The notes: generated from the sequence alone by a model not told the origin. A DNA stretch of 64,000 bases from Nannocystis sp. (GCF_016714285.1 NZ_JADJNN010000012.1:154040-218039); one strand, 5' to 3'; positions 4,432 through 60,569 are shown, counted from the stretch's first letter. Program-made: numbers and translations.

Positions 4432-6297
4432 TCACTTGCGGCGGTTCTTCTTGCGCGCCAGCTTCTCCGCCTTGCGCTTCGCCGCGATCGCCTTGTAGTC
4501 GATGGCACCCTTCGGCGCGCCCGGGTGCCCGCCCATGCCGCCATGCCCACCGAGGTTCGGCGCGCCCTGTTGTCCACCCGGCAGCCCCGGCATGCCTGGC
4601 AGCCCACCCATGCCCGGCATGCCGCCCATGCCCGGCATGCCGCCCATGCCCGGCAGTCCGCCCATTCCCGGCATGCCGCCGCCGCCGAACATCGAGCTCA
4701 GCGCCTCCGGGTTCTGGGCCAGCTTGCGCAGCGCGTTGAGCTGCTTGAGGCTGCCCATCCCGGGGATCTTGTCCATCAGCCCGCCGAGGCCGCCGCGCTT
4801 CTGATCACCGCCGGGCATGCCCGGGATGAGCCCGCCGAACATGCCGCCCATCATGCCGAACATGTCGCGCATGCTGATGAAGCGGGCGATGAGCCCACGG
4901 ACCTCGTCCTCCGTGCGCGCGCTGCCGCGGGCCACCCGGGCGACGCGGCTCTGCACGAAGTCCTCGGGCTTCATGTTGTTGGGGTCGGGCATGCCGGCCG
5001 CCGGGTCACGCCGCTTGCGCCGGCTGAGTTTGGCCGCGGCCGACTGCTTCGGATCCTTGTCGAAGAACAGCTCCGGCTCGTTGCGCTCCGCCTTCGTCAT
5101 CGAGCGGATCATCGCCTCGACCTTGCCGAGCTCCTTGTCGTCCGTGGCTTGCTGCATCGCCTCCGGCGGGATCTCGATCCCGAACATGCTGGCCAGGGGC
5201 ATCTTCTCCATGATGTCCTTGAGGCTGCCCATGCTCTGGATGTTCTTGATCTGGGTCAGGAAGTCATCCATCGAGAACTTGCCCGAGAGCATCTTCTCGG
5301 CGTCCTTCGCGGCCGTCTCCTCGTCGACGACCTCCTGGAAGTCGTTCATCAGCCCGACCAGGTCGCCCATCCCTAGGATGCGCCCGGCCAGACCCTCGGG
5401 GCGGAACTCGTCGAGCTTGTCGAGCTGCTCGCCGATGCCGAGGAACTTGATCGGCTTGCCGGTGACCGCCTTCACCGACAGCGCCGCGCCGCCGCGGGCG
5501 TCGCCGTCGAGCTTGGTCAGGATCACGCCGGTGACGTCGAGCTTCTCGTCGAAGGCCTTCGCGGTGGTCACCGCGTCCTGGCCAATCATCGCGTCGATCA
5601 CCAGGAAGATGTTCGACGGCTGGACCCGCGTCTTGATGTCCGCGAGCTCCTGCATCAACACGGCGTCGATCGTCAGGCGACCGGCGGTGTCGTAGATGAC
5701 GAAGTCGTAGTTCTCGGCCGCGGCGGTGTCGGTCGCGTCGGCGCAGATGTCGACCGGGTTGGCCCCGTCGATCGAGAACACCGGCAAACCGAGCTTCTCG
5801 CCCAGCACCTTGAGCTGGTGCACCGCGGCCGGACGGTACACGTCCGCGGCCACCAGCATCACCTTGTAGCCGGCCTTCTGCAGCTTGCGCGCGAGCTTGC
5901 CGGTGGTGGTCGTCTTGCCCGAGCCCTGCAGGCCCACCATCATGATGCCCGTGACGCCCTTGCGCGCCCGCGACAGCGAGGTGTCCACCGGACCCATCAG
6001 CGCGATCAGCTCGTCGTGGCAGATCTTGACGAAGTGGTCCTCGGCGCGGACCCGCAGCGTCTCGCTCTGCTTCTTCGCGACCAGCTGCACCTTCTCGCCG
6101 AGCGCCTTCTCTTTGACCGCCTGCAAGAAGCGCTTGACCACCCCGAACTCGACGTCCGCCTCGAGCAAGCTCAGGCGCACGTCCTTCAGAGCGGCGTTGA
6201 CCACGTCCTCGGTCAACTCGCCTTTGCCAGTCAAACGCTCGCGCGCGGCCCGGAAACCCTTCGATAATGTCTCGAACACGGCCGGGCGTTCTACCAC
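4432..6297 (-). CDS. ffh: signal recognition particle protein Ffh
   Basis: It has an SRP54 N-domain, a GTPase domain (GLQGSGKTTT...DTAGR...TKLDGDARGG) and an M-domain. The C-terminal tail is an extended Gly/Met/Pro-rich repeat (GGMPGMGG x several) followed by a Lys/Arg-rich end. Confidence 0.9.
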   Translation of the reverse strand: MVERPAVFETLSKGFRAARERLTGKGELTEDVVNAALKDVRLSLLEADVEFGVVKRFLQAVKEKALGEKVQLVAKKQSETLRVRAEDHFVKICHDELIALMGPVDTSLSRARKGVTGIMMVGLQGSGKTTTTGKLARKLQKAGYKVMLVAADVYRPAAVHQLKVLGEKLGLPVFSIDGANPVDICADATDTAAAENYDFVIYDTAGRLTIDAVLMQELADIKTRVQPSNIFLVIDAMIGQDAVTTAKAFDEKLDVTGVILTKLDGDARGGAALSVKAVTGKPIKFLGIGEQLDKLDEFRPEGLAGRILGMGDLVGLMNDFQEVVDEETAAKDAEKMLSGKFSMDDFLTQIKNIQSMGSLKDIMEKMPLASMFGIEIPPEAMQQATDDKELGKVEAMIRSMTKAERNEPELFFDKDPKQSAAAKLSRRKRRDPAAGMPDPNNMKPEDFVQSRVARVARGSARTEDEVRGLIARFISMRDMFGMMGGMFGGLIPGMPGGDQKRGGLGGLMDKIPGMGSLKQLNALRKLAQNPEALSSMFGGGGMPGMGGLPGMGGMPGMGGMPGMGGLPGMPGLPGGQQGAPNLGGHGGMGGHPGAPKGAIDYKAIAAKRKAEKLARKKNRRK

Positions 6298-6425: not shown

Positions 6426-8321
6426 ATGACGAAAACCGCCGCCAGGGCCCAGGGATGGGGCGTCAGCCTGCTGTTTCGCGGTCGCAGCGTCGCCGAGTGC
6501 AGCGTCCGCGACGGCGCTCCGCTGCGTGTGGGCGAAGATCCCGCGTGCACGCTGGTCGTGCCGGGCCTCGGCGGCAGCGCCTTGCTCGCGCAGGGCGAGC
6601 GCCTCCTCGGCGTGCCCGGACTCACCGGTCTGGTCCACCGCGACGGCGAGCCCGAGCCCGTGCAGGAGACCGACGGCACGACCCTCAGCGTGGGCGAGCG
6701 CGCCGAGCTGCATTTCGTCGCTCACCCGGAGATCACCCTCGAGCTGCGTCGCCAGCAGTTCGATCGCCTCCCGCTCGGCACGCTGCTCAACGTCCGCGAG
6801 CTCGGTCGCCAGCTGGCTCTCGGCGCCGGCCTGGTCGCCGGCATGATCTTGCTGGTCCGCAGTGAGGCGCCGGTCAACACCCTCGAGGTCAAGGGCGAGC
6901 CCGACGCGCCCGAGGACTCGGCCCTGGTGCGGGCGATGTTCGCCACCGCGGTGGAGCCTGTACCGATCGTCGACGTCCGTTGGCTGCCCGTGCCTGTGCC
7001 CGTCGCTCCGCCGTCGCCCGAGCCGCCCGCGCTTGCCAGCCTCGCCGCGCTCTTGCCCCCGCCCGTCGCCGTGCCCGTCGCCGACGCACCGCCGCGAGCC
7101 CGCAAGCGCCGCGCCCCCGAGCCCGAGGTCACCGCGATGCTGCTCGGCTCGCTGGAAAGCGACGAGCTCGGCGGTGTGTTCGACGAAGCCGTGGTCGGCG
7201 GTGTGGTCGGCGGCGTGGTCGGCGGTACGGTGGCATCCGACGTGATGGCCGAGCGCAGCCCGGACGCCCCTGGCCTCGCCTTCGGCCTCGCGGACGGTGG
7301 TGCTGGCGGCCTGGGTGGCGGCGGCACGGGCGAGGGCGTCAGCGCCCGTCCGACCGTCGGCGACGAGCTCGTGGTCCGCGAGCTCCACGATCAGCCCAGG
7401 CCCGAGCTCGTCGAGCTCGACGAGCCGGCCGACGACAGCTTCGTCGAGGCGATCATGGGCCCCGGCACCAGCGACACACCTGTCCCCGGGGACAGCCCGC
7501 CGCCGCCTCCGCAGGCTGGCCCGCACAGCCACGGCGAGGCCGGCGTCGCCGTGCTGCGTGGCACCGCCGACGGGCTCGCCGCGGTCGCCCCCGAGGACCG
7601 CTGCGACGACCCCACGATCAGCAAGAAGCGCCAGCTCGACGTCGTCTTCGTCGTCGACGTCTCGACCACCATGAATTTCATGCTCGGCCGCATCGAGCAG
7701 CAGCTCGCGCAGGTCGACGCCGAGGCGCGGGCGGCCGGCCTCGACACTCGCTACGGCCTCGTCGTCTTCGTCGACGACGTCCAGCTCGGCAACCAGGGCC
7801 AGCCCTACGTCGACCTCGCCGCCGTGCAGCGGGACCTCGCGCACTGGCAGGCCTTCACCAGCAGCAACCGCCAGATCGGCAGCGAGGCCGCCAACCTCGA
7901 CTGGCCCGAGAACAGCCTCGACGCCCTCCACAGCGCCGCCACCGGCTTCGCCTGGCGACCCGCCGACACCACCCTGCGGATGATCGTCCACGCCACCGAC
8001 GACGACTTCGGCGAGGCCCCCGCGGTCCAGAGCGGGCAGCAGATCCAGCACAGCTACCAAGCGACCGTCACGGCCCTGCGCGCGGCGGAGGTCCGCATGT
8101 TCAGCTTCGCCGCAAAGATCGGCGGTCAGTGCGAGTGCCTCGACGTCCGCCCGGGCCTGTTCACCCGCCACCGCGGCCGGCCCTCGCTGCCGAGCGCCAC
8201 CGGCGGGGTCGTGTTCGACATCGACGAGGTCGCGAGCGACAAGCTCAGCTTCGCGGCCGCGGTCGGCGGCGCGATCAAGAGCGGCGTCTGCACCCGCTAC
8301 CCGCTCTCGCCGTTCGGCTGA
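6426..8321 (+). CDS. FHA-domain / von Willebrand factor A-domain protein
   Basis: The internal Met starts MTKTAARAQGWGVSLLFRGRSV...PLRVGEDPAC (FHA-like). The C-terminal half has KRQLDVVFVVDVSTTMNFMLGRI...YGLVVFVDDV, a VWA MIDAS-type fold. The middle is a Pro/Ala-rich linker. Confidence 0.7.
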   Translation: MTKTAARAQGWGVSLLFRGRSVAECSVRDGAPLRVGEDPACTLVVPGLGGSALLAQGERLLGVPGLTGLVHRDGEPEPVQETDGTTLSVGERAELHFVAHPEITLELRRQQFDRLPLGTLLNVRELGRQLALGAGLVAGMILLVRSEAPVNTLEVKGEPDAPEDSALVRAMFATAVEPVPIVDVRWLPVPVPVAPPSPEPPALASLAALLPPPVAVPVADAPPRARKRRAPEPEVTAMLLGSLESDELGGVFDEAVVGGVVGGVVGGTVASDVMAERSPDAPGLAFGLADGGAGGLGGGGTGEGVSARPTVGDELVVRELHDQPRPELVELDEPADDSFVEAIMGPGTSDTPVPGDSPPPPPQAGPHSHGEAGVAVLRGTADGLAAVAPEDRCDDPTISKKRQLDVVFVVDVSTTMNFMLGRIEQQLAQVDAEARAAGLDTRYGLVVFVDDVQLGNQGQPYVDLAAVQRDLAHWQAFTSSNRQIGSEAANLDWPENSLDALHSAATGFAWRPADTTLRMIVHATDDDFGEAPAVQSGQQIQHSYQATVTALRAAEVRMFSFAAKIGGQCECLDVRPGLFTRHRGRPSLPSATGGVVFDIDEVASDKLSFAAAVGGAIKSGVCTRYPLSPFG

Positions 8322-18807: not shown

Positions 18808-19521
18808 ATGCCACGCAGTTCCAGGTCCCTGATCCCCTCGCTCCTCGCCTTCCTCGCAACCGCCTCCCTCGGCGCTGGCTGTGTGCTCTACGGCGGCCCC
18901 GAGGACTACAAGACCTGCGCCGAGGTCGTGTGCGGCAACCATGCCACCTGTGGCGAGAACGCGGACTGTTACTGCGACGCTGGCTACGACGGCAACCCCT
19001 ACGACGGCTGCGTCGATGTCACGCCGGCGGTCGACGCCACCTGCAAGGTCGACTGCGGGCAGAACGCGTACTGCTCGGAGGGCGCCTGCTACTGCGAGCT
19101 CGACCACATCGCCGTGTGCGGTGCGAACGCTGGATGCATGCCCGAGGCCCGCGTCTGCGACGGTCAGCCTGACTGTCCCAACAGCGCCGACGAGGCCGTC
19201 GCTGTGTGCAGCAAGCCGGTGTTCCAGGAGTGGCTGATCACCGACGATTGTGACGACGGCCTCGACATCGAGTGGCGGCTGTACGCCCAGGATCGCGACT
19301 GGGCCTGGCCCGACGCGACCTCCACTTTTGTCACCACTGGCATCGGCGCCGAGGACTTCCAGACCATTCAGTGCTTCGACGGCGAGACGATCTGCATGGC
19401 GGGCGCCGCAGGGGACACCGTCTGGGGCTTGAACCTCGACGGCACCGGCAGCTGTGACACGTGTTGCTTTCTCTGCGGCAGCCCAACGTACATCGACCTC
19501 GGCTTCCAGACCTGCCAGTAA
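18808..19521 (+). CDS. Cys-rich secreted lipoprotein with EGF-like and LDL-receptor class A-like modules
   Basis: The lipobox is LGAGCVL. The repeats CGNHATCGENADCYCDAGYDGNPYDGC and CGQNAYCSEGACYC are EGF-like. CDGQPDCPNSADEAVAVC has the LDLa signature (C..DG..DC.D.SDE..C). The protein has 30+ Cys. Confidence 0.55.
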   Translation: MPRSSRSLIPSLLAFLATASLGAGCVLYGGPEDYKTCAEVVCGNHATCGENADCYCDAGYDGNPYDGCVDVTPAVDATCKVDCGQNAYCSEGACYCELDHIAVCGANAGCMPEARVCDGQPDCPNSADEAVAVCSKPVFQEWLITDDCDDGLDIEWRLYAQDRDWAWPDATSTFVTTGIGAEDFQTIQCFDGETICMAGAAGDTVWGLNLDGTGSCDTCCFLCGSPTYIDLGFQTCQ

Positions 19522-19668: not shown

Positions 19669-20181
19669 ATGACAGAGATCGCCCAGCTCTTCGAGTCTGC
19701 GCTCCGGCAGAACCGTGCCAACCTGCTGCGCAAAGCCGCGATCAACACCGTGGCCAAGATGCCGGCACAGACCACCTTGCACGAGCTCCTCAGCAGCGAA
19801 GCAGGCACCTCGATCCGCGAGCTCACCCTCCACGAGCTGCGTGAGGCGCTGACCGGCTTCGTCCCCGCAGCGGGCGCTCGTCGGAGCCCGGGTGCAGCCA
19901 GTCACAGCGGCCCAGGCGGCCACACCAGTCACTCCGGCGTGACGGTGAACGCCGCCACGCCGGCCGCCAATAACGCCTCCCCGGAGAGCCGCGAGGCCCG
20001 GCTCTACCGCCAGATCATCGACGCCGTCGGCCACGAGCCGAAGACCATCGGCCAGCTCGCCAAGGTCGTCGATGTCGACGTGGTCGAGCTCCGCGGCTAT
20101 CTCGCGTGGATGAAGAAGATGGGCAAGATCGACAGCACTGGCCGAGCCCGGGCCACGCGCTATCACCTGCCAGCTGGTTGA
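19669..20181 (+). CDS. hypothetical protein with C-terminal winged-helix-like segment
   Basis: The start is taken at MTEIAQLFESAL. The C-terminus IGQLAKVVDVDVVELRGYLAWMKKMGKIDSTGRARATRY looks like a wHTH. Weak. Confidence 0.35.
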   Translation: MTEIAQLFESALRQNRANLLRKAAINTVAKMPAQTTLHELLSSEAGTSIRELTLHELREALTGFVPAAGARRSPGAASHSGPGGHTSHSGVTVNAATPAANNASPESREARLYRQIIDAVGHEPKTIGQLAKVVDVDVVELRGYLAWMKKMGKIDSTGRARATRYHLPAG

Positions 20182-20182
20182 C

Positions 20183-20252
20183 CACGCCAGGCTGACCACG
20201 CCAGGCGCCAGGCTGACCACGCCAGGCTGATCACGCCAGGCTGATCACGGCA
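20183..20252. repeat. about 5 copies of a 14-bp tandem repeat (gaccacgccaggct / gatcacgccaggct)
   Basis: The array ttgaccacgccaggctgaccacgccaggcgccaggctgaccacgccaggctgatcacgccaggctgatcacgg lies in the intergenic region upstream of the sigma54-regulator locus. Confidence 0.8.
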
Positions 20253-20311
20253 CATGGCACGCCTGAGGGTGCTTGCTCCGGCGCGCGAGCTGGGGGATCC
20301 TTGCGCCGGCC

Positions 20312-20740
20312 ATGGACGACAGCAGCGACGACCTCGAGTTTGGCCGGCAGATCGCCGCGCTCAAGCACGACCTCGGCAAGTATGTGGCGTGGATGTCGGC
20401 CAACCTCGATGAGGACTGCTGGCATGGCCCCGTGCGCGACGAGCTGATCGACGCCCTCGAGCGCGACCTGCTGCGCACGCGGACCCCCGCGGACGGCCCG
20501 CCCGAGCCCGCCTGGGCGGTGTGGCAGCGGCTGGCTGGCGCGCTCCCCAAGCCCTGGCGCCACCCCGAGCTGCACGACGTCGACGCCGCCGTCGCCGAGC
20601 TGCAGGCGGCCGAGCCGGCGCTGCGGGCCCGCGATCGCGTCGCGCTCGCCAGCCAGCGCTCGACCATCCGCGCCGCGCAGCGGACGATCCGCAGCGCCTT
20701 GCAGCAGCTCCATCGTCGTCTCCTCCAGGCCGAGACCTAA
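20312..20740 (+). CDS. hypothetical protein
   Basis: The ORF is 20273 (TTG) or 20312 (ATG, MDDSSDDLEF)..20740. The sequence is charged and helical with no known motif. It ends 9 nt before the sigma54 EBP gene. Confidence 0.3.
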   Translation: MDDSSDDLEFGRQIAALKHDLGKYVAWMSANLDEDCWHGPVRDELIDALERDLLRTRTPADGPPEPAWAVWQRLAGALPKPWRHPELHDVDAAVAELQAAEPALRARDRVALASQRSTIRAAQRTIRSALQQLHRRLLQAET

Positions 20741-20749
20741 GAGCCTCGC

Positions 20750-22420
20750 ATGTCCTCGATCCTCATCATCGACGACGAGGACAGCTACCTCGAGCTGTGC
20801 CGGCGCCACATGCCCGAGCACAGCTTCTTGCCGCCGGCCCGCAACTATCGCGAGGCCGCCGACACGCTGCGGCGTCACGCCGGCAAGGTCGACCTCGTCC
20901 TGCTCGACGTCCACTTCGACATCCCCGAGGCCGATCTGTTGCCGCAGGACAAGGCCGCGCTGCTGGCCCGCGGCGACGCCAGCCGCCAGATCGAGCGCCT
21001 GCGCCGTAGCCAGGGCTTGCACATCCTCGCCGCGATCCGCGAGCGTTACCCCGATCTGCCGGTGATCGTGATGACCTCGCGGGACGACCTCCCGCTCGAG
21101 ACCGACGCCGAGCGTCTGCAGGCCGAGGACTACACCTACCTGCTCGCGGACGACTACCTCGACGCGCGTTCGCTCAAGCTGCAGGTCGACGCCATCCTCG
21201 CCCGCCGCGAGCGTCCGGCCGCCAACGACGACGACCCCTTCTACTGGGGCGCGACCGGGGCGATGTCCAGCCTCCAGCGCCGGCTCTCGATCCTCGCGCG
21301 CGGCCGCCTGCCGATCATCATCCAGGGCGCCACCGGCACGGGCAAGAGCCTGGTCGCCCGCGAGTTCATCCACCCGCGCTCGCAGCGACCTGGCCCCTTC
21401 GTCGCCGTCGACCTCTCGACGCTGCCGACCGATCTGATGGCCGCGCACCTGTTCGGCGTGATCAAGGGCGCCTACACCGGCGCGACCAACACGCGCGAGG
21501 GCGTGCTGACGCGGGCCCACGGCGGCACCCTCTTCCTCGACGAGATCGGCAACCTCTCGCTCGAGCTGCAGAAGTCGCTGCTGCTGGTGCTGCAGGAGGG
21601 CGTGTACCGCCCGGTCGGCGCCGTCAAGGAGATCGTCACCGACATCAAGATCGTCGTCGCCACCAACGAGAACCTCGGCGCCCTGGTCCGCGCGGGCCGC
21701 TTCCGCGAGGACCTGTACATGCGCCTGAACCCGGCCACCGCGGTCACCCTGCCGAGCCTACGCGAGCGTCGCGACGACTTCGAGGATCTGCTCGCCTGGT
21801 TCATGCGTCAGGTCGTCGGCGAGGCCTACAACCGCGACCTGCTCGGGCAGTACGCCGAGCAGCGCGGCCTCGCGGCCAACCTCCCGATCAGCGCCGGCCG
21901 CGGCGTCCCACCCCGCGCCGACGTGCGGCGGATCCATTTCCTGCTCCACCCGAGCAGCTTCAAGCTGCTGCACGACTTCGAGTGGCCGGGCAACTTCCGT
22001 CAGTTCGCCATGACCCTGTCCAACCTCGTCACCTTCACGCTGGTCGAGCTGGTCGAGCGCGCCGAGAAGATCGAACCCCAGCGCCCCGGCGAGGGGCGCC
22101 CCGACGTCATCCCGATCCCGCCGAAGATCGTCAGCGACCTGCTGCGACCGATGACCCCGCCCGAGGTCGTCGACCTGCCGATGGCCGCCGCGGGCCCGCG
22201 GCGCTTCGTCGTCGATCTCGAGGCCGGGGACTCGCTCAACGCGGTCTCCTGCGCCGTCGAGCGGCAGTACCTCGAGCAGCTCTACGAGCGCTGCGGCGCC
22301 GATCTCGGGCAGATGGCCGCGCTCCTGCTCGGCGACGAGACGGCCGGGCGCAAGATCCAGCTGCGCATGAACCAGCTCGGCATGAAGCTGCGCCTCCTCA
22401 AGCGCAAGACGGGGGAGTGA
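20750..22420 (+). CDS. sigma-54-dependent response regulator (NtrC family enhancer-binding protein)
   Basis: The receiver reads ILIIDDE...LVLLDVHFD. The AAA+ sigma54-interaction domain has Walker A GATGTGKS, the GAYTGA variant of GAFTGA, and the ESELFGH-type region. A C-terminal Fis-type HTH is present. Confidence 0.85.
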   Translation: MSSILIIDDEDSYLELCRRHMPEHSFLPPARNYREAADTLRRHAGKVDLVLLDVHFDIPEADLLPQDKAALLARGDASRQIERLRRSQGLHILAAIRERYPDLPVIVMTSRDDLPLETDAERLQAEDYTYLLADDYLDARSLKLQVDAILARRERPAANDDDPFYWGATGAMSSLQRRLSILARGRLPIIIQGATGTGKSLVAREFIHPRSQRPGPFVAVDLSTLPTDLMAAHLFGVIKGAYTGATNTREGVLTRAHGGTLFLDEIGNLSLELQKSLLLVLQEGVYRPVGAVKEIVTDIKIVVATNENLGALVRAGRFREDLYMRLNPATAVTLPSLRERRDDFEDLLAWFMRQVVGEAYNRDLLGQYAEQRGLAANLPISAGRGVPPRADVRRIHFLLHPSSFKLLHDFEWPGNFRQFAMTLSNLVTFTLVELVERAEKIEPQRPGEGRPDVIPIPPKIVSDLLRPMTPPEVVDLPMAAAGPRRFVVDLEAGDSLNAVSCAVERQYLEQLYERCGADLGQMAALLLGDETAGRKIQLRMNQLGMKLRLLKRKTGE

Positions 22421-22426
22421 CGGAAC

Positions 22427-24976
22427 ATGCGGACGCGGGCGGGCGTCATCGGGGCGATGTCCCTGCGCATCGCCGCTACTGGCCTCGTGCTCGGCCTCGT
22501 GCTCGGCCTCGCCGGTCACGTCGTCGCCGCGCCCGCTGGCAAGAAGTCCGCTGAAGCGCGCCCGCCTGCAGTCACCGTGAAGCCCGCGCTCGAGGCCGAG
22601 GGTCCGGCCGATGGCTTGCCGCCGCCGCCGGTGCTGGAGGCCGACACCGGCGAGACCGGCGGACCCGGCGACGAGTTCGGCGAGACCCCGCCGATGACCC
22701 CGCAGCAGCGGCTGCAGGAGTTCGACCTGCACATCAGCCGCGCCCAGCGGGCCGAGCGTGAGAACCGCCTCGACGACGCGATCCGCGAGTACAGCGCGGC
22801 GCTCAAGCTCCAGCCCGGCGATCCGGCGGCGCTCAAAGGTCGCGCCTATCTCCGGCACAAGCGCACGAAGGAGGGCCAGTGCCCCAAGCGCGCGATCGAA
22901 GATCTGCGGCTGCTGCGGACCTACGACCCGCGCGGCCTGTGGCTCGAGCAGCGCGGCACCCTCGTCACCTGGCTGGGTCAGTGCGACACCCGCACGGACG
23001 CGGAGCGCCTGAGCCTCGCGCTCGAGGTCGCCGACGACGACCCCAAGTCGGCCAATCGCCCCGGCGACATCCGCTTCACCATCGCCGTCCTGCAGGCGCG
23101 CCAGGCCGAGGCCGCCGAGCGGGAGCGCGAGCGGCTCGCGCTCCAGCGGGCCGCGCTGCAGGAGCTCGAGCGCTACCGCAAGGACTGCGAGCAGATCGGG
23201 CGCAAGCCGGCCGCCGACGCGCTGGCCCTGCAGGCGGCCCTCTACCGCAGCACCGACAACCCCGAGGCCGCGATCCAGATCTACGAGGAGCTGCTGCGCC
23301 GCTACCCGGGCACCACCGCCGCCAAGCAGGCCAAGAAGAGCGTCGACGACCTCAAGCTCGAGGTGCAGCTCGACCGGCTGGAGAAGGAGCAGGGCGGCAA
23401 GCCGAGTCAGGCCGCGGAGGCCGCGTACACCAGCGCCGTCGCGGCGCTGCGAACCGGTGACCTCGCCACCGCCGAGCGCGAGCTCGACAAGGCGATCGCC
23501 GACTCGCCGTGGTTCCCCAAGGCGCACTACGTCCTCGGGATCGTCCACGCGCGCAGCGGTCGGGTCCCGAAGGCCGCCGAGGAGCTGAAGATCAGCATCC
23601 GCATGGACCGCTTCGACTACGAGGCGCACATGGCCCTCGGCCTGCTCTACAAGAAGGAGTTCGCCGGCGGCGAGGACGAGCAGGCGATCAAGCACCTCGA
23701 GACGGCGCTGCTGCTGCGCCCCGATCTCTACCACCTGCACTTCCAGCTCGGGCAGCTCTACGCCCGCATCGACCGCGAGCGGGCGCGTCGCTCCTTCACC
23801 CGCTTCCTCGACGCCCCGATCCCCGAGGACGACCCCGACCGCGAGCTCGCCCGGCGCGCCCGCGACGAGCTCAACCGCGAGCCCGCCGCCGAGAACCCCT
23901 CGATCCTCCCCGAGCCCCCGCGCGACCTCCAGCGCCTCGATCCCGAGCTGCAGCGCATGATCAACGAGGCCTACCTGCGCGTCAGCGAGGAGCAGGACTT
24001 CCAGCAAGCCGAGCGGGTGCTCGAGCGCGCCCGCAAGAAGTTCCCCGGCGAGGAGGTCGTGCTCAACGAGCTCGCCAAGGTCGCCTACGCGACCGGCCGC
24101 TTCGGCAACGCCCGCGAGTTCTGGGAGACCTCGCTGGCGATGAAGGAGGACCAGATGGAGGTGCACGAGCGCCTCGGCCTCTTGCTCGAGAGCGACCTGC
24201 CCGACGAGGCCACCACCCACCTGCGCCGGGCCGCCGAGCTCGGCGCCTCGACGGCCCGCTTCCGCCTGGCCCAGCTGCTGTGGTCCGACCTGCGCGTGCT
24301 CGACGCCTCCGACGAGCTCGACCGCTACCTCGCCGCCGCCGGCCCCTACGACCTCTACTGGGACGCGGGTCGGCGCCTGCGGGAGCGCATGGACCAGGTG
24401 TTCCTGCGCCTCTATCTCGCGATCGGCGCCCTGCTCCTGCTCCTGATCTCGATCCCCGCGTGGCAGGTGTACCGGCGCCTGCGCGGCGCCTCGCTGGCCC
24501 AGCTGCTGCAGCGCGCGCCCAAGAGCTTCCCCGAGGTCGCCCGGATCTTGAGCCTCATCCGCCACGAGATCCTCAAGCACAACACCGCCTTCCTCACCGA
24601 CGTCGGCCGCGCGCTCGAGATGGACGAGCCCGACGCCGAGGTGCGGGCCGGCATCGTCGCCCGCCGCCTGTTCGGCGAGCACCGCGGCGGGGCCCCGGCG
24701 GGTCAGCCCGCCGGCATGCGCGAGCGCGGCATCTACGGCCGCTTCCTCGGCTACGTCGCCGAGCTGCAGAAGGTCGGGCGCAGCCACGGCGTCACCCTGA
24801 ACCTCGGCCGCAAGGACCCGATCTTCAGCGCCATGATCACCGCCTTCGAGGATCTGCGCGGGCTCGAGGCGATGCAGCGCACCCCACCCGCGACCGCCCG
24901 ACCGTTAAGCTCGACTGGTCGCGCCGGCTGGTCCGCTCGGGCCACGTGCTCGGGCGCAAGGCCTTCGAGTCGCTGA
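22427..24976 (+). CDS. TPR-repeat membrane protein with cytoplasmic H-box (sensor-kinase DHp-like) segment
   Basis: There is a signal/TM, then ~600 aa of TPR-like repeats, then a TM helix (AIGALLLLLISIPAW). The cytoplasmic part has SLIRHEILKHNTAFLTDV, matching the HisKA H-box (HELRTPLTAI). The last ~30 aa overlap the next gene in another frame. Confidence 0.55.
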   Translation: MRTRAGVIGAMSLRIAATGLVLGLVLGLAGHVVAAPAGKKSAEARPPAVTVKPALEAEGPADGLPPPPVLEADTGETGGPGDEFGETPPMTPQQRLQEFDLHISRAQRAERENRLDDAIREYSAALKLQPGDPAALKGRAYLRHKRTKEGQCPKRAIEDLRLLRTYDPRGLWLEQRGTLVTWLGQCDTRTDAERLSLALEVADDDPKSANRPGDIRFTIAVLQARQAEAAERERERLALQRAALQELERYRKDCEQIGRKPAADALALQAALYRSTDNPEAAIQIYEELLRRYPGTTAAKQAKKSVDDLKLEVQLDRLEKEQGGKPSQAAEAAYTSAVAALRTGDLATAERELDKAIADSPWFPKAHYVLGIVHARSGRVPKAAEELKISIRMDRFDYEAHMALGLLYKKEFAGGEDEQAIKHLETALLLRPDLYHLHFQLGQLYARIDRERARRSFTRFLDAPIPEDDPDRELARRARDELNREPAAENPSILPEPPRDLQRLDPELQRMINEAYLRVSEEQDFQQAERVLERARKKFPGEEVVLNELAKVAYATGRFGNAREFWETSLAMKEDQMEVHERLGLLLESDLPDEATTHLRRAAELGASTARFRLAQLLWSDLRVLDASDELDRYLAAAGPYDLYWDAGRRLRERMDQVFLRLYLAIGALLLLLISIPAWQVYRRLRGASLAQLLQRAPKSFPEVARILSLIRHEILKHNTAFLTDVGRALEMDEPDAEVRAGIVARRLFGEHRGGAPAGQPAGMRERGIYGRFLGYVAELQKVGRSHGVTLNLGRKDPIFSAMITAFEDLRGLEAMQRTPPATARPLSSTGRAGWSARATCSGARPSSR

Positions 24977-25455
24977 GCAGCGTGATCCACTCGCTGTGCA
25001 TCGTCGAGGTCGCGCCCGGCCTGGTCCGCGAGGTCTTCGCCCAGGTCGTCGCCGAGGCCCAGTTCGGCGGCGTGCAGGTGCGCGAGCTCGAGGTGGCGGG
25101 GGAGGGCGCCCGCGTGCGAGTGTTCCGCTCCGACCTCGAGGACATCCTGACCAACGTCATGCGCAACTCGCTGCAGTCGAGCGTCCTCTACGCGCCCAAG
25201 CCGATCGCCCTCGGGGTCGCCCTGGTCACCGAGATGGACGAGATCACCGGCCTCAGCAGCCTGGCGATCCGCATCCAGGATCGCTCGAGCGAGCAGCTCA
25301 GCAACGAGATGTTGCGCGGCCGCTACGTCGAGCGCGGCATGGGCATCACCGCCGACCTGCTGTCCCGCTACGACGGCTCGATCGCCGTCGAGCCCGAGCC
25401 CGGCTGGCAGAAGGCCGTCGTGCTCCGCTTCTTCACCGTCGAGGAGGTCCCATGA
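24946..25455 (+). CDS. stand-alone GHKL (HATPase_c) ATPase domain protein, or frameshifted C-terminus of the preceding sensor
   Basis: This is the frame +1 relative to the TPR gene. It has the N-box LTNVMRNSLQSS and the G2-box ERGMGITADLLSRYDGSIAV. The only nearby in-frame start is a GTG at 24946. The preceding ~1400 nt of this ORF are Arg/Pro junk. Confidence 0.45.
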   Translation: MLGRKAFESLSSVIHSLCIVEVAPGLVREVFAQVVAEAQFGGVQVRELEVAGEGARVRVFRSDLEDILTNVMRNSLQSSVLYAPKPIALGVALVTEMDEITGLSSLAIRIQDRSSEQLSNEMLRGRYVERGMGITADLLSRYDGSIAVEPEPGWQKAVVLRFFTVEEVP

Positions 25456-25958
25456 GTTCGTCCAACACTTCCGGGTCGCGAGAGATCGACCCACGCGAGA
25501 TCAAGGTCCTGATCGTCGAGGACGGCGACGAGTACCTGCAGAACCTCTCGACCTTCGTCGCCCGCGGGATCCGCTACACCCAGGCCAAGAGCGGCGGCTG
25601 GGCCTGCACCCTCCTGAGCACGCTGCAGCCCGATCTGGTCTACCTCGACATGCGCTTCGATCGCACGCCGAACGAGGCGCTGCTCGGCGACTTAGTCGGG
25701 CTCACGGCCCGCTTCAACGGCGACGTCGCCCGCGCCCGCGCCTTCCAGCAGGACAACCAGGGCCTGTTCGTGCTGCGAGCGCTGCGCGACGCCGGCTTCC
25801 ACGGCCCGGTGATCCTCTCCTACGACTTCAGCCGCGAGGAGCGGCGCTTCCGCGCCCTGTCCGACAAGGACCCCGCGCTCTCGTACTGCCCCGACTACGC
25901 CGACGCCAGCGAGATCCAGGCCGCGATCTTCCGCGCCGTCGGGCGTCGGCCGCCGTGA
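25452..25958 (+). CDS. atypical receiver (REC-like) domain protein
   Basis: MSSSNTSGSREIDPREIKVLIVEDGDEY...PDLVYLDMRF...VILSYDFS has a flavodoxin-like receiver topology with candidate acidic pocket residues. Its ATG overlaps the stop of the GHKL gene (ATGA). Confidence 0.45.
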   Translation: MSSSNTSGSREIDPREIKVLIVEDGDEYLQNLSTFVARGIRYTQAKSGGWACTLLSTLQPDLVYLDMRFDRTPNEALLGDLVGLTARFNGDVARARAFQQDNQGLFVLRALRDAGFHGPVILSYDFSREERRFRALSDKDPALSYCPDYADASEIQAAIFRAVGRRPP

Positions 25959-26394: not shown

Positions 26395-26396
26395 AC

Positions 26397-26436
26397 GGCC
26401 CTGGACGGCCCTGGGCGGCCCTGGACGGCCCTTGAC
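26397..26436. repeat. 10-bp tandem repeat ggccctgg(a/g)c x about 4
   Basis: The intergenic array ggccctggacggccctgggcggccctggacggccc lies directly after the thioesterase stop. Confidence 0.7.
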
Positions 26437-26467
26437 CGCCGCGAACCCTTTCCGTAGCGTGCTCGCC

Positions 26468-26680
26468 ATGCGCACCGCATTTCACCTCGTCCTCGGTCTG
26501 TCCCTCCTGAGCCTCGGCGCCTGCGCCGAGCAGCCCGGCAAGAAGAAGGAAGAGACCAAGGCCGAGACCAAGACCGACAGCAAGACCGACAAGCCCGACG
26601 GCACCAAGACCGAGACCAAGACCGAGACCAAGGTTGAGACCAAGGTCGAGACCCCGCCGACCCCGCCGCCGGCCACCTGA
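26468..26680 (+). CDS. small secreted lipoprotein with Lys/Thr/Glu-rich repetitive tail
   Basis: MRTAFHLVLGLSLLSLGACAE has a lipobox. It is followed by KKKEETKAETKTDSKTDKPDGTKTETKTETKVETKVETPPTPPPAT. Its stop overlaps the next ATG (TGATG). Confidence 0.5.
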   Translation: MRTAFHLVLGLSLLSLGACAEQPGKKKEETKAETKTDSKTDKPDGTKTETKTETKVETKVETPPTPPPAT

Positions 26681-27609
26681 TGCGCCTCCCGCTGCGTCAT
26701 CCGCCGCCCGTGGCGGACACGCCGCTGCGACGTTGCGCTCACCTCGAGGCGCTGGCCGAGTCGGCCCTCGGCCTCGGCCTCGGGCCCGCGGCCGCCCTGG
26801 TCGCGCCGATCCACGCCCGCGGCCGCTTCGGCAACGCCCTGCAGTGGCACTTCGGGCTCGACCCCCACGACAGCTCCGAGCAGCTCGACTGGGAGGACCG
26901 CATCGAGCTCAAGCTGGTGTCCGTGTGGCGCCGCCGCGACGGCGGCCTCGCCTGCGACAAGCTCAAGGTCTGCGACATCACGGCCGACCCGTGGCGCAAG
27001 CTGGGCAACGTGCTGTGGGTGTTCGCCGATCGCATGACCCGCGCGATCGTCGGTCACCGATTCACTCGGCTCGCCGGGGCGGCCCGCAGCTCGCTCGCCG
27101 CGGCCTGGGACCACGACCCTCACTTCGACCGCCCCGCGATTTTCGTCGAGGCTCGTGAGCAGGACGAGCGCCAGGCCCCCGCGTACTACCTCAGCGCCAC
27201 CTGGCTCGCCGAGCACGTGCTGCCCGCGAGCCTGCCCGGTGTCTACCGATTCGACGCGAAGTGGTGGTCCGAGGCCCGCGGTCACGGCCGCTGGCGCCGC
27301 GATCCCTTGCTGGCGCTGTGGCGCGGCGAGCCGTCACCCGTGGCCTGCCCGCGCTGCGGCGGCCCGCTGCGCTGCGAGCTCGATCGGCTGCGGGCCGAGG
27401 GCTGGTCGCCAGCCGTGCACGCGATGCCGCTGGGCCCCGACTGTGGCCTGCAGGCGCACGCGGTGCTCGCCATGGCCGGCCTGCCGCTGGCCCCTGGCGC
27501 CCTCGGCTTCGACGATCTGGTCGCCGCGATCGAGAGCCGCGTGGCGGCGAGTCAGGTCGCCCGCCTCAGCGACCGCGTGCTCGAGCCCGAGGACCACGAG
27601 CACGACTGA
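26680..27609 (+). CDS. MutH/Sau3AI-like PD-(D/E)xK nuclease-fold protein with C-terminal Cys4 zinc ribbon
   Basis: GNALQWHFGLDPHDSSEQLDWEDRIELKLV aligns with the MutH catalytic region (PDFPELGVELKT, i.e. D...E.K). The C-terminus has CPRCGGPLRCELD. Confidence 0.45.
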   Translation: MRLPLRHPPPVADTPLRRCAHLEALAESALGLGLGPAAALVAPIHARGRFGNALQWHFGLDPHDSSEQLDWEDRIELKLVSVWRRRDGGLACDKLKVCDITADPWRKLGNVLWVFADRMTRAIVGHRFTRLAGAARSSLAAAWDHDPHFDRPAIFVEAREQDERQAPAYYLSATWLAEHVLPASLPGVYRFDAKWWSEARGHGRWRRDPLLALWRGEPSPVACPRCGGPLRCELDRLRAEGWSPAVHAMPLGPDCGLQAHAVLAMAGLPLAPGALGFDDLVAAIESRVAASQVARLSDRVLEPEDHEHD

Positions 27610-57415: not shown

Positions 57416-58384
57416 ATGGCTCGCCCCGCGCCCGGTCGCCGCGCTGCCCCGCCTCGCCCCGCACCTGTCTCGAAGGCCAGCCCCGGGGGCCTCGACGGCG
57501 CGATCGACGAGTACCTCATGCACCTCAAGGTCGAGCGGGGCCTGCGGCCCAACTCGCTCACCGCCTACGCCCAGGACCTGCGCGAGCTGGCCGCCTTCCT
57601 GGTCGCTCGCCTCGGTGACCCGGCCCCGCTCGCGCGCGTCGACCCGCCGCTGCTGCTCGCCTACCTGCAGGCGATCGCCCCGAAGCTCAAGGCCCGCAGC
57701 CAGGCCCGCCGCGTCGTCGCCCTGCGCGGCCTGTTCCGCTGGCTGCGCGAGGAGGGGCAGATCGCCGTCGACCCCAGCCAGGGCCTCGCCGCGCCGCGCC
57801 TGGCCCAGAAGCTCCCCGACCTGCTCGGCCGCGACGAGGTCCTGCGCCTGCTCGCCGCGCCCGGTAGCGACGGTCCGCTCGCGCTGCGCGACACGGCCCT
57901 GCTCGAGCTGCTCTACGCCAGCGGCTGCCGCATCTCCGAGGCGCTCGACCTCAGCCTCGATCGCCTCTACCTCGACCAGGCCGTGGTCCGGCTGATCGGC
58001 AAGGGCGACAAGATGCGCCTGTGCCCGATCGGCGGCCCCGCGGTCGCGGCCCTGCACGCCTGGCTGCGCGACGGCCGACCCGCGCTGGCTCGGGGCAAGC
58101 GCCCGAGCCCGCTGGTCTTCCTCAACAAGAGCGGCGCCCGCCTGTCACGCCAGGGCTTCTTCCAGAAGCTGCGCGAGCACGCGATCGCGGCCGGCATCAC
58201 CCGTGACATCTCGCCGCACAAGCTCCGCCACAGCTTCGCCACCCACCTGCTCGAGGGCGGCGCTGACCTGCGCGCCGTGCAGACCCTGCTCGGCCACGCC
58301 GACATCGCCACGACCCAGATCTACACCCACGTCAGCGACGCCCAGCTGCGCAGCGCCCACCGCAAGCACCACCCGCGCGCCTGA
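57416..58384 (+). CDS. xerD: tyrosine recombinase XerC/XerD
   Basis: The N-terminal core-binding domain is present. The catalytic region reads ...[20 protein letters not shown]...[39 protein letters not shown] (R..HxxR..Y). Confidence 0.8.
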
Positions 58385-58394
58385 GCTGCGCGGC

Positions 58395-58410
58395 CTGTCC
58401 CAAGGGACAG
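58395..58410. terminator. hairpin CTGTCCC-aa-GGGACAG downstream of xerD
   Basis: It is the third member of the recurrent hairpin motif, 11 nt after the xerD stop. Confidence 0.35.
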
Positions 58411-58419
58411 ACCGCTGCG

Positions 58420-59259
58420 TCACGGGCAGCGCGGCGCGACGAAGCTGCCCTCGAGCTGCGGCTCGCTGAAGCTGAAGAAGCCGTCGACGTGGCACAGCCG
58501 GCCCGTCACGTTCTGGTCGTCGATCGCCAGGATCTCGAAGGTCGCGCCGAAGCTGCCGCCACCGAACGCGCAGTCGCTGTTGTTGCCGTTGACCGGGCCG
58601 GTCTCGCTGGCGCTGCCGGTCACGTCCTGCCCGAGCAGGTTGAACACGCCGGGCGACTGAAACTCGGGCGGAATGGCGATCGTCACGTCCCAGTGTTCGC
58701 CGCACGGGAGCGACGCCTGCGGGTCGACGCAGCTCGCCTTCTGGTCCGAGAGCCGCACGTACAGCGTGGCCGGGTCCGGCTCGCCGCCGCCGCTGCTGCC
58801 GCTGGTGCCCGTGGGGTTCGGCTGCGGGGGGATCTGCGACTTGAGATACGCGAGGGTCTCGACCCCGGCCAGCGGCGTGGCCATCCCCTCGCACGGCACC
58901 ACGGGCGGCGGATCGCTGGTGTCGCCGGTGTCCAGCGAGGTCTGGCTGGTGGCGACGGTGGTCGCGCTGGTCGCCCCGGTGGTGGCGCTCGCGGTGCCCG
59001 GATCGCTGGTGGCGGTGGTCGTTGTGCCGGTCGCGGAGCCGGCCGATCCGCCGGAGCCGCTGTTGGTGGCCGACGCGGTACCTGGGCTGGTCGGGTCGCT
59101 GGCGCCGGTGGTCAGCTCCTCACCGGTGGTGGTCATGGTGCCGCTCGAGTCACCACCCTCGTCGTTGCCCATCTTGGGGCCGCAGGCGAGGCCAGCGGTG
59201 AGGCCAGTGGCGAGGCTGATGACGACGAGGGCGGGGAGTTTGTCGAGAAATGAAGCCAT
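58420..59259 (-). CDS. secreted lipoprotein with Thr/Ser/Gly-rich linker and Cys-containing C-terminal domain
   Basis: [29 protein letters not shown] has a lipobox. About 100 aa are TSGA-rich. The C-terminal domain has 6 Cys. Confidence 0.5.
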
Positions 59260-59296
59260 GGCGCCACGGAATAACATGGTGCCGCGGTATTGCGGT

Positions 59297-59699: not shown

Positions 59700-60569
59700 G
59701 TGACGAAGACAAGCAGTGGCGTGGGATTGTTCCTGGCGGCGCTCTGCGCCTGTGTCACGCCGCAGGGCGGCACGACGAGCGACGCTGGCAGCAGCAGCGG
59801 CGGCGGCTCGGAGCCGACCACCGACGAGCCGCCCGACAGCGACGCGAGCGGCCCGATCCAGACCGTCACCAGCGACACCGACCCCGACCCGACGGGCTCG
59901 AGCACCGCGACCAGCGACGCCAGCAGCAGCAGCAGCGGCCATGGCGACACCACCACCGGCGACGCCTGCACCGGCATCGTCGACGCGCTCGCGCTGGCGC
60001 TCTCGGCCGACGCGCGCTGCCAGCTGCTGCTCGCCCTCGACGCCGACGCCGGCCTGGTCGGCTGGCACGCCGTCTGCGGCGCGGTCCCCCCGGCGGATGT
60101 CTACGACGCGAAGAGCGCCCTCACGGCGACGGCCTGCTGCGCCGACGGCATGTTCCTCCAGGATGTCAGCCCCTTCGTCGTCTACTTCGCCCCGGCGGAC
60201 CCGGCCGAGGGCGGCGTGGCGATCGTCAGCAACCATCTCGGCGCCGTGGTCTTCGACGCCACCATCGGCATCGCCAATCCCGGGACGATCTCCGTGCCCG
60301 ACACGTGGAGCCCCGTGGACATGCTCGGCGTCGGCGCAGGCTGCTCCGACCAGGGCGTCGATCTCACGGGCCTGCAGAGCTTCCACGCCGGGGACGGCGA
60401 GATACCCGTGGGCTTCGAGGCCAAGGTCGGCGAGGCGATCGACGCGACTGCGCTGCCCGCCGCGCTGGCCGGGGCCGCCACCATCGATCGCGCCGTGCTG
60501 CTCGGCTACGAGGACCACGACAAGGCCCCGAGCAGCTACCTCCTGCTGCTCGAGCTGCGCGCCACCTGA
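59700..60569 (+). CDS. secreted lipoprotein (Thr/Ser/Asp-rich linker and Cys-containing domain)
   Basis: The start is a GTG. LFLAALCACVTPQGG has a lipobox. An acidic S/T linker is followed by a domain with 6 Cys. Confidence 0.5.
   Translation: MTKTSSGVGLFLAALCACVTPQGGTTSDAGSSSGGGSEPTTDEPPDSDASGPIQTVTSDTDPDPTGSSTATSDASSSSSGHGDTTTGDACTGIVDALALALSADARCQLLLALDADAGLVGWHAVCGAVPPADVYDAKSALTATACCADGMFLQDVSPFVVYFAPADPAEGGVAIVSNHLGAVVFDATIGIANPGTISVPDTWSPVDMLGVGAGCSDQGVDLTGLQSFHAGDGEIPVGFEAKVGEAIDATALPAALAGAATIDRAVLLGYEDHDKAPSSYLLLLELRAT

Follow-up and report, generated by a model that had tools for sequence, protein, structure and literature searches.

In canonical pairs of a transmembrane histidine kinase (HK) and an NtrC-family regulator, such as ZraS/ZraR, AtoS/AtoC and NtrB/NtrC, a membrane sensor that has a His region and a GHKL-type catalytic and ATP-binding (CA) domain is found beside an activator composed of a receiver (REC) domain and an AAA+ domain. 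Here we describe a locus of this form in a 64-kb stretch of Nannocystis sp. DNA (NZ_JADJNN010000012.1, 154040–218039; hereafter the window), in which the sensor kinase gene, preceded by the gene for a sigma-54 activator and followed by that for a small receiver, is written in two reading frames. We conclude, with high confidence, that it is one gene encoding a transmembrane sensor kinase of approximately 1009 residues, the frame of which is broken by loss of a single C at 24880–24889, and that it is not a two-protein design, since in about 60 related genomes the protein is encoded without a break in frame. Coordinates refer to the window and, unless marked otherwise, to its plus strand.

The kinase shares with the canonical pairs a conserved N-box Asn, G1 Asp and G2 Gly-x-Gly, and a CA fold that superposes on theirs. 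It departs from them in the lack of a Pfam HisKA or HATPase_c match in the window protein and in an intact Nannocystaceae relative (P0025), in a His-to-Asn spacing of approximately 201 aa, in the replacement of the G1 glycines (D-R-S), and in a periplasmic sensor of approximately 600 aa made of tetratricopeptide repeats (TPRs). Both receivers encoded at the locus lack the usual Lys and carry an insert of approximately 30 aa after the acceptor Asp, and the activator has no Pfam HTH_8 match.

Two other systems are comparable. Nla6S of Myxococcus xanthus, the kinase partner of the sigma-54 enhancer-binding protein (EBP) Nla6, is presented, by the title of a 2012 report by Sarwar and Garza and its citation in PMC9765219, as the prototype of a new HK family that departs from the standard motifs. 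At the level of that description it is a loose precedent, being likewise a divergent myxobacterial kinase with an EBP partner, whereas in the family described here the N, D and G2 motifs are still recognizable and the sensor is of the TPR/transmembrane (TM) type. The PrsK/PrsR/PrsT system, associated with PEP-CTERM/EpsH, brings together a TPR protein, a sensor kinase and a sigma-54-dependent regulator, but its TPR protein is a separate lipoprotein (PMC1569441). Membership of the present locus in that system was rejected on the NCBIfam scores, which were 65.4 bits for TIGR02917 (cut-off 312.2) and 166.9 bits for TIGR02915 (cut-off 502.6). The locus is a variation on the two-component theme and not a new kind of system.

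The kinase reading frame changes at a C-run that is one nucleotide short

The upstream called open reading frame (ORF) of the kinase (22427–24976; ORF call and Pfam) encodes 849 aa with TPR repeats and hydrophobic segments at residues 6–38 and 655–682, and because of the position of these two segments the TPR array is placed in the periplasm and the last ~170 residues in the cytoplasm. The cytoplasmic part carries an H-box-like motif, SLIRHEILKHNTAFL (24551–24595). The N-box-like DLEDILTNVMRNSL (25132–25173) and the G2-like ERGMGITADLL (25330–25362) are found in the downstream frame, which is already open well before this point, with a G1-like IRIQDRSSE (25267–25293) between them and a TGA stop codon at 25453–25455. 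A sequence-only reading of the window had described a sigma-54 activator followed by a TPR/TM protein with a His motif and by ATPase boxes in another frame; all of these elements are present, although the frame that it named +1 is in fact −1. The dimerization and histidine phosphotransfer (DHp) and CA regions lie on one polypeptide in the orthologues but in different frames in the window as written, from which translation would stop 29 out-of-frame codons past the deletion, yielding a protein with the TPR array, TM segments and His box and without the ATPase.

The position of the frame change was visible in codon composition. Across the region, which is ~70% G+C, the G+C content of third codon positions (GC3) is 0.97–1.00 in the upstream frame to ~24878 and in the downstream frame from ~24880. 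Within the out-of-frame tail of the 849-aa ORF (24887–24976; PATARPLSSTGRAGWSARATCSGARPSSR, followed by the stop), GC3 of the upstream frame drops to 0.6–0.7, and this tail is without counterpart in any homologue in the protein alignment. Six-frame Viterbi segmentation of the whole window located the frame switch at 24878|24879, which is 67 nt before a GTG codon at 24946 and 96 nt before the upstream stop. There are 13 same-strand frame switches in the window, and the kinase junction is the only one with both the stop and the start far away: at each of the other 12 the stop is no more than 39 nt from the switch and the start is within ~25 nt. The minus-strand junctions are also ordinary. The pattern at the kinase junction is the mark left by a frameshift within a single gene, the sole such site in 64 kb, and because it is unique among the 13 same-strand switches it is not attributable to chance.

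The frameshift site, caccccaccc (24880–24889), is one base short compared with all of the aligned relatives, as seen in DNA and protein alignments and in the Viterbi segmentation. A MAFFT DNA alignment with 12 relatives contained exactly one gap, of 1 nt, within 24875–24889 and in the window only (cagcgcac-cccacc), and the protein alignment of the window required exactly one added residue (RTP-x-RDRPTVKLDW). By comparison of the aligned sequences, the ancestral sequence was likely acc-ccc-acc, with a run of five C residues that is now four. The 5′ part of the kinase gene (22427–24886; residues 1–820; frame 2 mod 3), delimited by GC3 and collinear with the single-frame orthologues, is followed by a 3′ part (24889–25455; residues 822–1009; frame 1 mod 3) that encodes the end of the pre-CA helix and the CA (GHKL) domain. 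A single kinase with an indel at the C-run was one of two explanations put forward from sequence alone, and the missing nucleotide relative to the 12 relatives and the GC3 switch at the same point bear it out, with the correction that the run is at 24880–24889 and not at 24890–24910.

Related genomes encode the kinase in one uninterrupted frame

Homologues were sought with the conceptually repaired cytoplasmic region as query. Scanning a single genome for each species gave 71 loci, among them those of Nannocystis punicea, N. exedens, N. bainbridge, N. radixulma, Plesiocystis pacifica, Enhygromyxa salina and numerous metagenome-assembled genomes; nearly all retrieved loci are from Nannocystaceae or other Myxococcota assemblies. 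Seventeen homologues with 52–89% identity pass the junction uninterrupted, for example LQRTPSRDKPTVKLEW. When the repaired 1009-aa protein was compared by tblastn, every complete locus gave a single-frame high-scoring segment pair spanning approximately query residues 1–1009, except for two N. pusilla assemblies. The His motif and the G2 box are within one stop-free frame in 62 of 72 related loci. Among the remaining ten, four end at contig edges, and four are distant loci where the G2 pattern fails and the ORF continues. Another, L066, matches neither pattern, although its tblastn alignment stays in one frame through the junction; the last, L001, has its own 1-nt deletion ~100 nt upstream of the window's site. 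The breaks in the two N. pusilla assemblies are at RERG|IYGRF (L001, 7880–8004) and at about residue 535 (L044, ~7626–7633). The aminotransferase and sigma-54 activator genes of L001 are likewise split, which suggests assembly errors.

An exhaustive profile search produced 438 cluster representatives, and the best 150 of these are mostly 870–1010 aa in length with the module C-terminal in one stretch. No natural split was found among the 72 loci or the best 150 of the 438 representatives. Two short proteins were considered as stand-alone CA proteins and rejected: P0010 (221 aa) starts right after a 100-N scaffold gap, and P0012 (207 aa) lies after another 1-nt deletion, in an N. pusilla assembly that also has split aminotransferase and activator genes. 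Whether orthologues in related Myxococcota are fused had been named in the sequence-only reading as the comparison that would speak for or against a split kinase; tblastn shows one protein of ~1000 aa, the outcome that it had set against the split.

If the four-C run is real, the strain could nevertheless possess a newborn split kinase, in which the membrane-bound TPR/His-box protein and a separate 169-aa CA protein cooperate in trans; a DHp sensor with a separate CA protein was the second of the explanations drawn from sequence alone. The CA protein would start at GTG 24946–24948, the sole candidate internal start, as had been recognized, since it is the first ATG, GTG or TTG in the downstream frame after 24729; an ORF starting there shares 31 nt with the upstream ORF. 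This GTG is in frame, and its product would retain 18 residues of the pre-CA helix and the whole CA domain with every catalytic motif intact. Reportedly, in work ascribed to Park, Saha and Inouye in 1998, the separated DHp and CA domains of EnvZ complement each other in vitro. Complementation in trans between EnvZ domains A and B is the sole precedent that makes a split kinase conceivable, but it is engineered and in vitro, whereas here nothing indicates expression of the CA fragment and the relatives are unsplit. High GC3 in the downstream frame starts 67 nt ahead of the GTG, and the stretch in between encodes residues that align with the orthologues and would be lost. The GTG codon is itself not conserved, being GTC in eight of the 12 relatives, ACG in one and GTG in three, and it has no purine-rich Shine-Dalgarno sequence upstream, in contrast to the receiver gene, which has GAGGAGG at 25441–25447, 4 nt (25448–25451) from its ATG. 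GTG 24946 is probably not used as a start, and with no split found in any of the loci or representatives surveyed, we consider a newborn split kinase very improbable.

Another possibility is restoration of the full-length kinase by programmed −1 ribosomal frameshifting or by transcriptional slippage at the C-run. A slip of tRNA-Pro from CCA (24884–24886) to CCC (24883–24885) would give RTP-T-RDRPT, exactly the orthologue length. However, an X XXY YYZ heptamer is missing from the sequence, the 90 nt that follow show no more folding stability than shuffled sequences (z −0.34), and the break is not conserved, all reliably assembled relatives being single-frame. A run of four C residues is, to our knowledge, too short for transcriptional slippage. 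We give such recoding almost no credence, and a single gene with a one-base deletion remains the explanation that we adopt.

Sequencing error or recent mutation

Of the 27 positions with at least 90% conservation across the family, 25 are retained in the repaired protein, both before and after the break, and codon bias is undisturbed. It follows that the lesion arose very recently or is an artefact. We incline slightly towards a sequencing error. The lost base is in a homopolymer, and contig names in several Nannocystis records, to judge from the record titles, appear to resemble long-read assembler output. Like frameshift-split genes in long-read assemblies, and like frameshifted pseudogenes, the kinase gene shows a one-base loss in a G/C homopolymer that breaks an intact conserved ORF, and in the two N. 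pusilla assemblies the same gene is broken elsewhere alongside other split genes.

One observation counts on the other side. There is no second frameshift in the rest of the 64-kb window, unlike in error-ridden long-read assemblies; this indicates a clean assembly and therefore somewhat favors a real recent mutation, to which we assign an appreciable probability, if short of an even one. The nearest relative, L073 (JGI Ga0558124_11284), has the window's length at the frameshift site (5640–5660), 1 nt shorter there than L002–L004. L073 has 91.9% substitution identity to the window, with 109 gap openings in 6.4 kb; because 67 single-nt indels are found within that 6.4 kb, it is uninformative as to four versus five C residues, and its shortness at the site may be a coincidence or reflect a shared error-prone context. 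An independent sequence of the same species was sought through the activator, and no protein identical to that of the window is on record.

The kinase has a divergent cytoplasmic module with a histidine kinase-type catalytic fold

The intact protein, as in all relatives, consists of a signal/TM1 segment (22442–22540), a periplasmic TPR array of ~600 aa (~22724–24238), TM2 (24389–24472) and a cytoplasmic module of ~330 aa, with a helical region containing the His motif following TM2. Within the cytoplasmic module, an invariant RHE(I/V)LKHNT motif is followed by additional helices (~90 aa), then by one long helix and the GHKL catalytic domain. In R-H-E-x-L-K-H-N-T, the H, E, K and H positions are at least 95% conserved in 110 full-length representatives, and the motif is invariant in 30 diverse members; its histidines are H713 and H718 of the repaired protein. 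The N and R-N positions of the N-box (consensus NLLRNA), the Asp at the G1 position and the G-x-G of the G2 box (RGLGL) are conserved to the same extent, at least 95% in the 110 representatives and invariantly in the 30. The window retains all of these residues, and has DRS where the G1 glycines would be.

An AlphaFold model of the cytoplasmic module of P0001, which is 89% identical, had a predicted local distance difference test (pLDDT) score of 82.6 and consists, in order, of a TM helix, short helices, a disordered loop, more helices, a 34-residue helix (173–206) and an alpha/beta domain. The C-terminal CA domain has the Bergerat (GHKL) fold of histidine kinases, and in a fold search it superposes on ZraS, CpxA, HK853, KdpD and VanS. 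The Pfam HATPase_c family (PF02518) is matched by 15 of the 30 diverse family members (best E-value 4.5e-6) and by neither the window fragment (at E ≤ 1) nor P0025, so that the kinase module is linked to HATPase_c only via the fold search and the more canonical members of the family. In the Nannocystaceae subgroup, Pfam, NCBIfam, PADLOC and a profile search of PDB sequences do not recognize the kinase module; Pfam, NCBIfam and the PDB search see TPRs only.

The distance from the His box to the N-box Asn is ~105–120 aa in EnvZ and HK853. A spacing of ~201 residues is a trait of the family described here and no sign of a split. The long distance had been held, from the sequence alone, to argue against a simple frameshift; that argument fails, since intact orthologues have the same ~200-aa spacing in one ORF.

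We regard the protein as a divergent member of the sensor histidine kinases, which would be phosphorylated on His, because of the conserved His, N, D and G2 motifs and the HATPase_c matches in 15 of 30 members. Several points weigh against this assignment. The His motif is at a helix break in the P0001 monomer model, at the junction of helices 44–62 and 65–77; the 25 Pfam families matched most often include none of the HisKA type; and comparison of the family profile with PDB sequences retrieved no solved HK. The family could instead be a GHKL Ser/Thr protein kinase like PDK/BCKDK or SpoIIAB/RsbW, with a His motif that is structural or regulatory; we think this unlikely and retain the histidine kinase assignment. 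A literature search found no description of this kinase family.

A sigma-54 activator and a single-domain receiver accompany the kinase

The gene upstream of the kinase (20750–22420) encodes a sigma-54 EBP of 556 aa with an atypical REC domain, an AAA+ domain and a putative, divergent Fis-like C-terminus. The AAA+ domain contains a GAYTGA loop and matches Pfam Sigma54_activat (E-value 2.6e-51). The Response_reg match scored 33.8 bits, just above the cut-off of 30.2, and alignment to the paralogous receiver shows an incomplete residue set: the DD pair, D53 (LLDVHFD) and T/S are present, and the Lys position is occupied by A-D. HTH_8 had no Pfam match at E ≤ 1, and the last ~45 residues look Fis-like by eye. 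NCBIfam matches of the NtrC/RtcR type are all far below their equivalog cut-offs. A role in a defence system was considered and rejected, as PADLOC matches only the generic AAA+ domain through RtcR-like models.

The gene downstream of the kinase (25452–25958) encodes a stand-alone atypical receiver of 168 aa, and its ATG overlaps the kinase stop as ATGA, in agreement with the translational coupling proposed in the sequence-only reading. The ORF has a weak Response_reg match. Its AlphaFold2 model (pLDDT 81.3) has a (beta-alpha)5 receiver fold with an acidic pocket and matched the receivers of KdpE, BfmR and Spo0F in Foldseek with a probability of 1.0 and a template modelling score (target) of ~0.8. 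E23, D24, D66 (the acceptor) and S123 are invariant in 30 orthologues, as is Cys146-Pro147 at the end of strand 143–146, which replaces the canonical Lys-Pro (CheY K109), and a helical insert of ~30 aa follows D66. The receivers at 20750–21229 and 25452–25958 are paralogous (29% identity, E-value 2e-8), with the ~30-aa insert and the lack of Lys in common.

The order of activator, kinase and 168-aa receiver is kept in every locus that is long enough, including L066 and L069–L072, where kinase identity is 28–38%. The activator is directly 5′ of the kinase in every locus reaching that far, and wherever a locus continues beyond the kinase stop the receiver is just 3′. This conserved synteny, together with the receiver fold, upholds the earlier proposals that the NtrC-family activator is the likely output and that the downstream ORF is an atypical receiver.

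Directly 5′ of the activator gene is ORF A (20273–20740; ORF call), which encodes 155 aa and had no match in Pfam, NCBIfam or PADLOC scans. By tblastn it is just 5′ of the activator gene in most loci reaching there (~55 loci, 41–82% identity). The wider synteny across Nannocystaceae comprises a Cys-rich secreted protein resembling LDL-A, a 170-aa ORF, ORF A, a 4HBT thioesterase and a 309-aa ORF. The Cys-rich protein (18808–19521) has a weak LDL-receptor-A match, the C-terminus of the 170-aa protein (19669–20181) may be a winged helix, and the 309-aa protein (26680–27609) has a CPRCGG motif. A search for sigma-54 promoters with TGGCAC-N5-TTGC and at most one mismatch found one match, at 60063, fewer than expected by chance, and a relaxed scan of 17–30 kb of the window found only intragenic matches with two or three mismatches. 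A TGGCACG upstream of ORF A was discarded as a promoter: its spacing to GTGCT or TTGC is wrong and it is not conserved in L004.

Several repeats were observed close to the module. The spacer between the 19669–20181 ORF and ORF A contains a tandem 14-mer, TGACCACGCCAGGC, in 5.6 copies (20179–20249). The sequences compared for the same spacer in L004–L009, L011–L013, L019, L024 and L025 lack it, which suggests an expansion specific to the strain or species. After the 4HBT thioesterase gene, a 10-mer, ACGGCCCTGG, is repeated in 4.6 copies (26395–26440), reaching into the start of the ORF that comes next. That ORF (26432–26680; 82 aa) is lipoprotein-like, with an LSLGAC lipobox and ETK/TKTE repeats encoded by a 12-mer array of 8.5 copies at 26552–26653. 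Further away, on the minus strand, the Viterbi call flips for 136 nt (58958–59093) within the coding region 58437–59246, where stop-free frames overlap (58145–59119 and 58420–59295); this flip is probably compositional noise.

Proposed circuit and implications

By analogy with two-component systems, the TPR array would sense a periplasmic or envelope ligand or protein, and the CA domain would phosphorylate a His of the conserved motif, either H713 or H718. The phosphoryl group might then be transferred to Asp53 of the sigma-54 activator, to Asp66 of the translationally coupled single-domain receiver, or to both. The single-domain receiver could act as a sink or connector, and the activator would then turn on sigma-54 promoters. 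The signal and the assignment of partners, like the phosphorylation of His, are what we infer from this comparison.

For annotation, the ORFs at 22427–24976 and 24946–25455 are best joined into one entry marked as a single frameshifted gene, not as a split kinase. The family is sizeable, with its 438 cluster representatives, and because the standard domain models miss the kinase module in the Nannocystaceae subgroup, members are annotated as "hypothetical" or "TPR protein". Were the split real after all, the locus would exemplify an uncharacterised kinase family with an expanded region between His box and CA domain and with Lys-less, insert-bearing receivers as partners. A kinase family that is always accompanied by a sigma-54 activator and a single-domain receiver, both Lys-less, is a reasonable target for cataloguing myxobacterial signalling.

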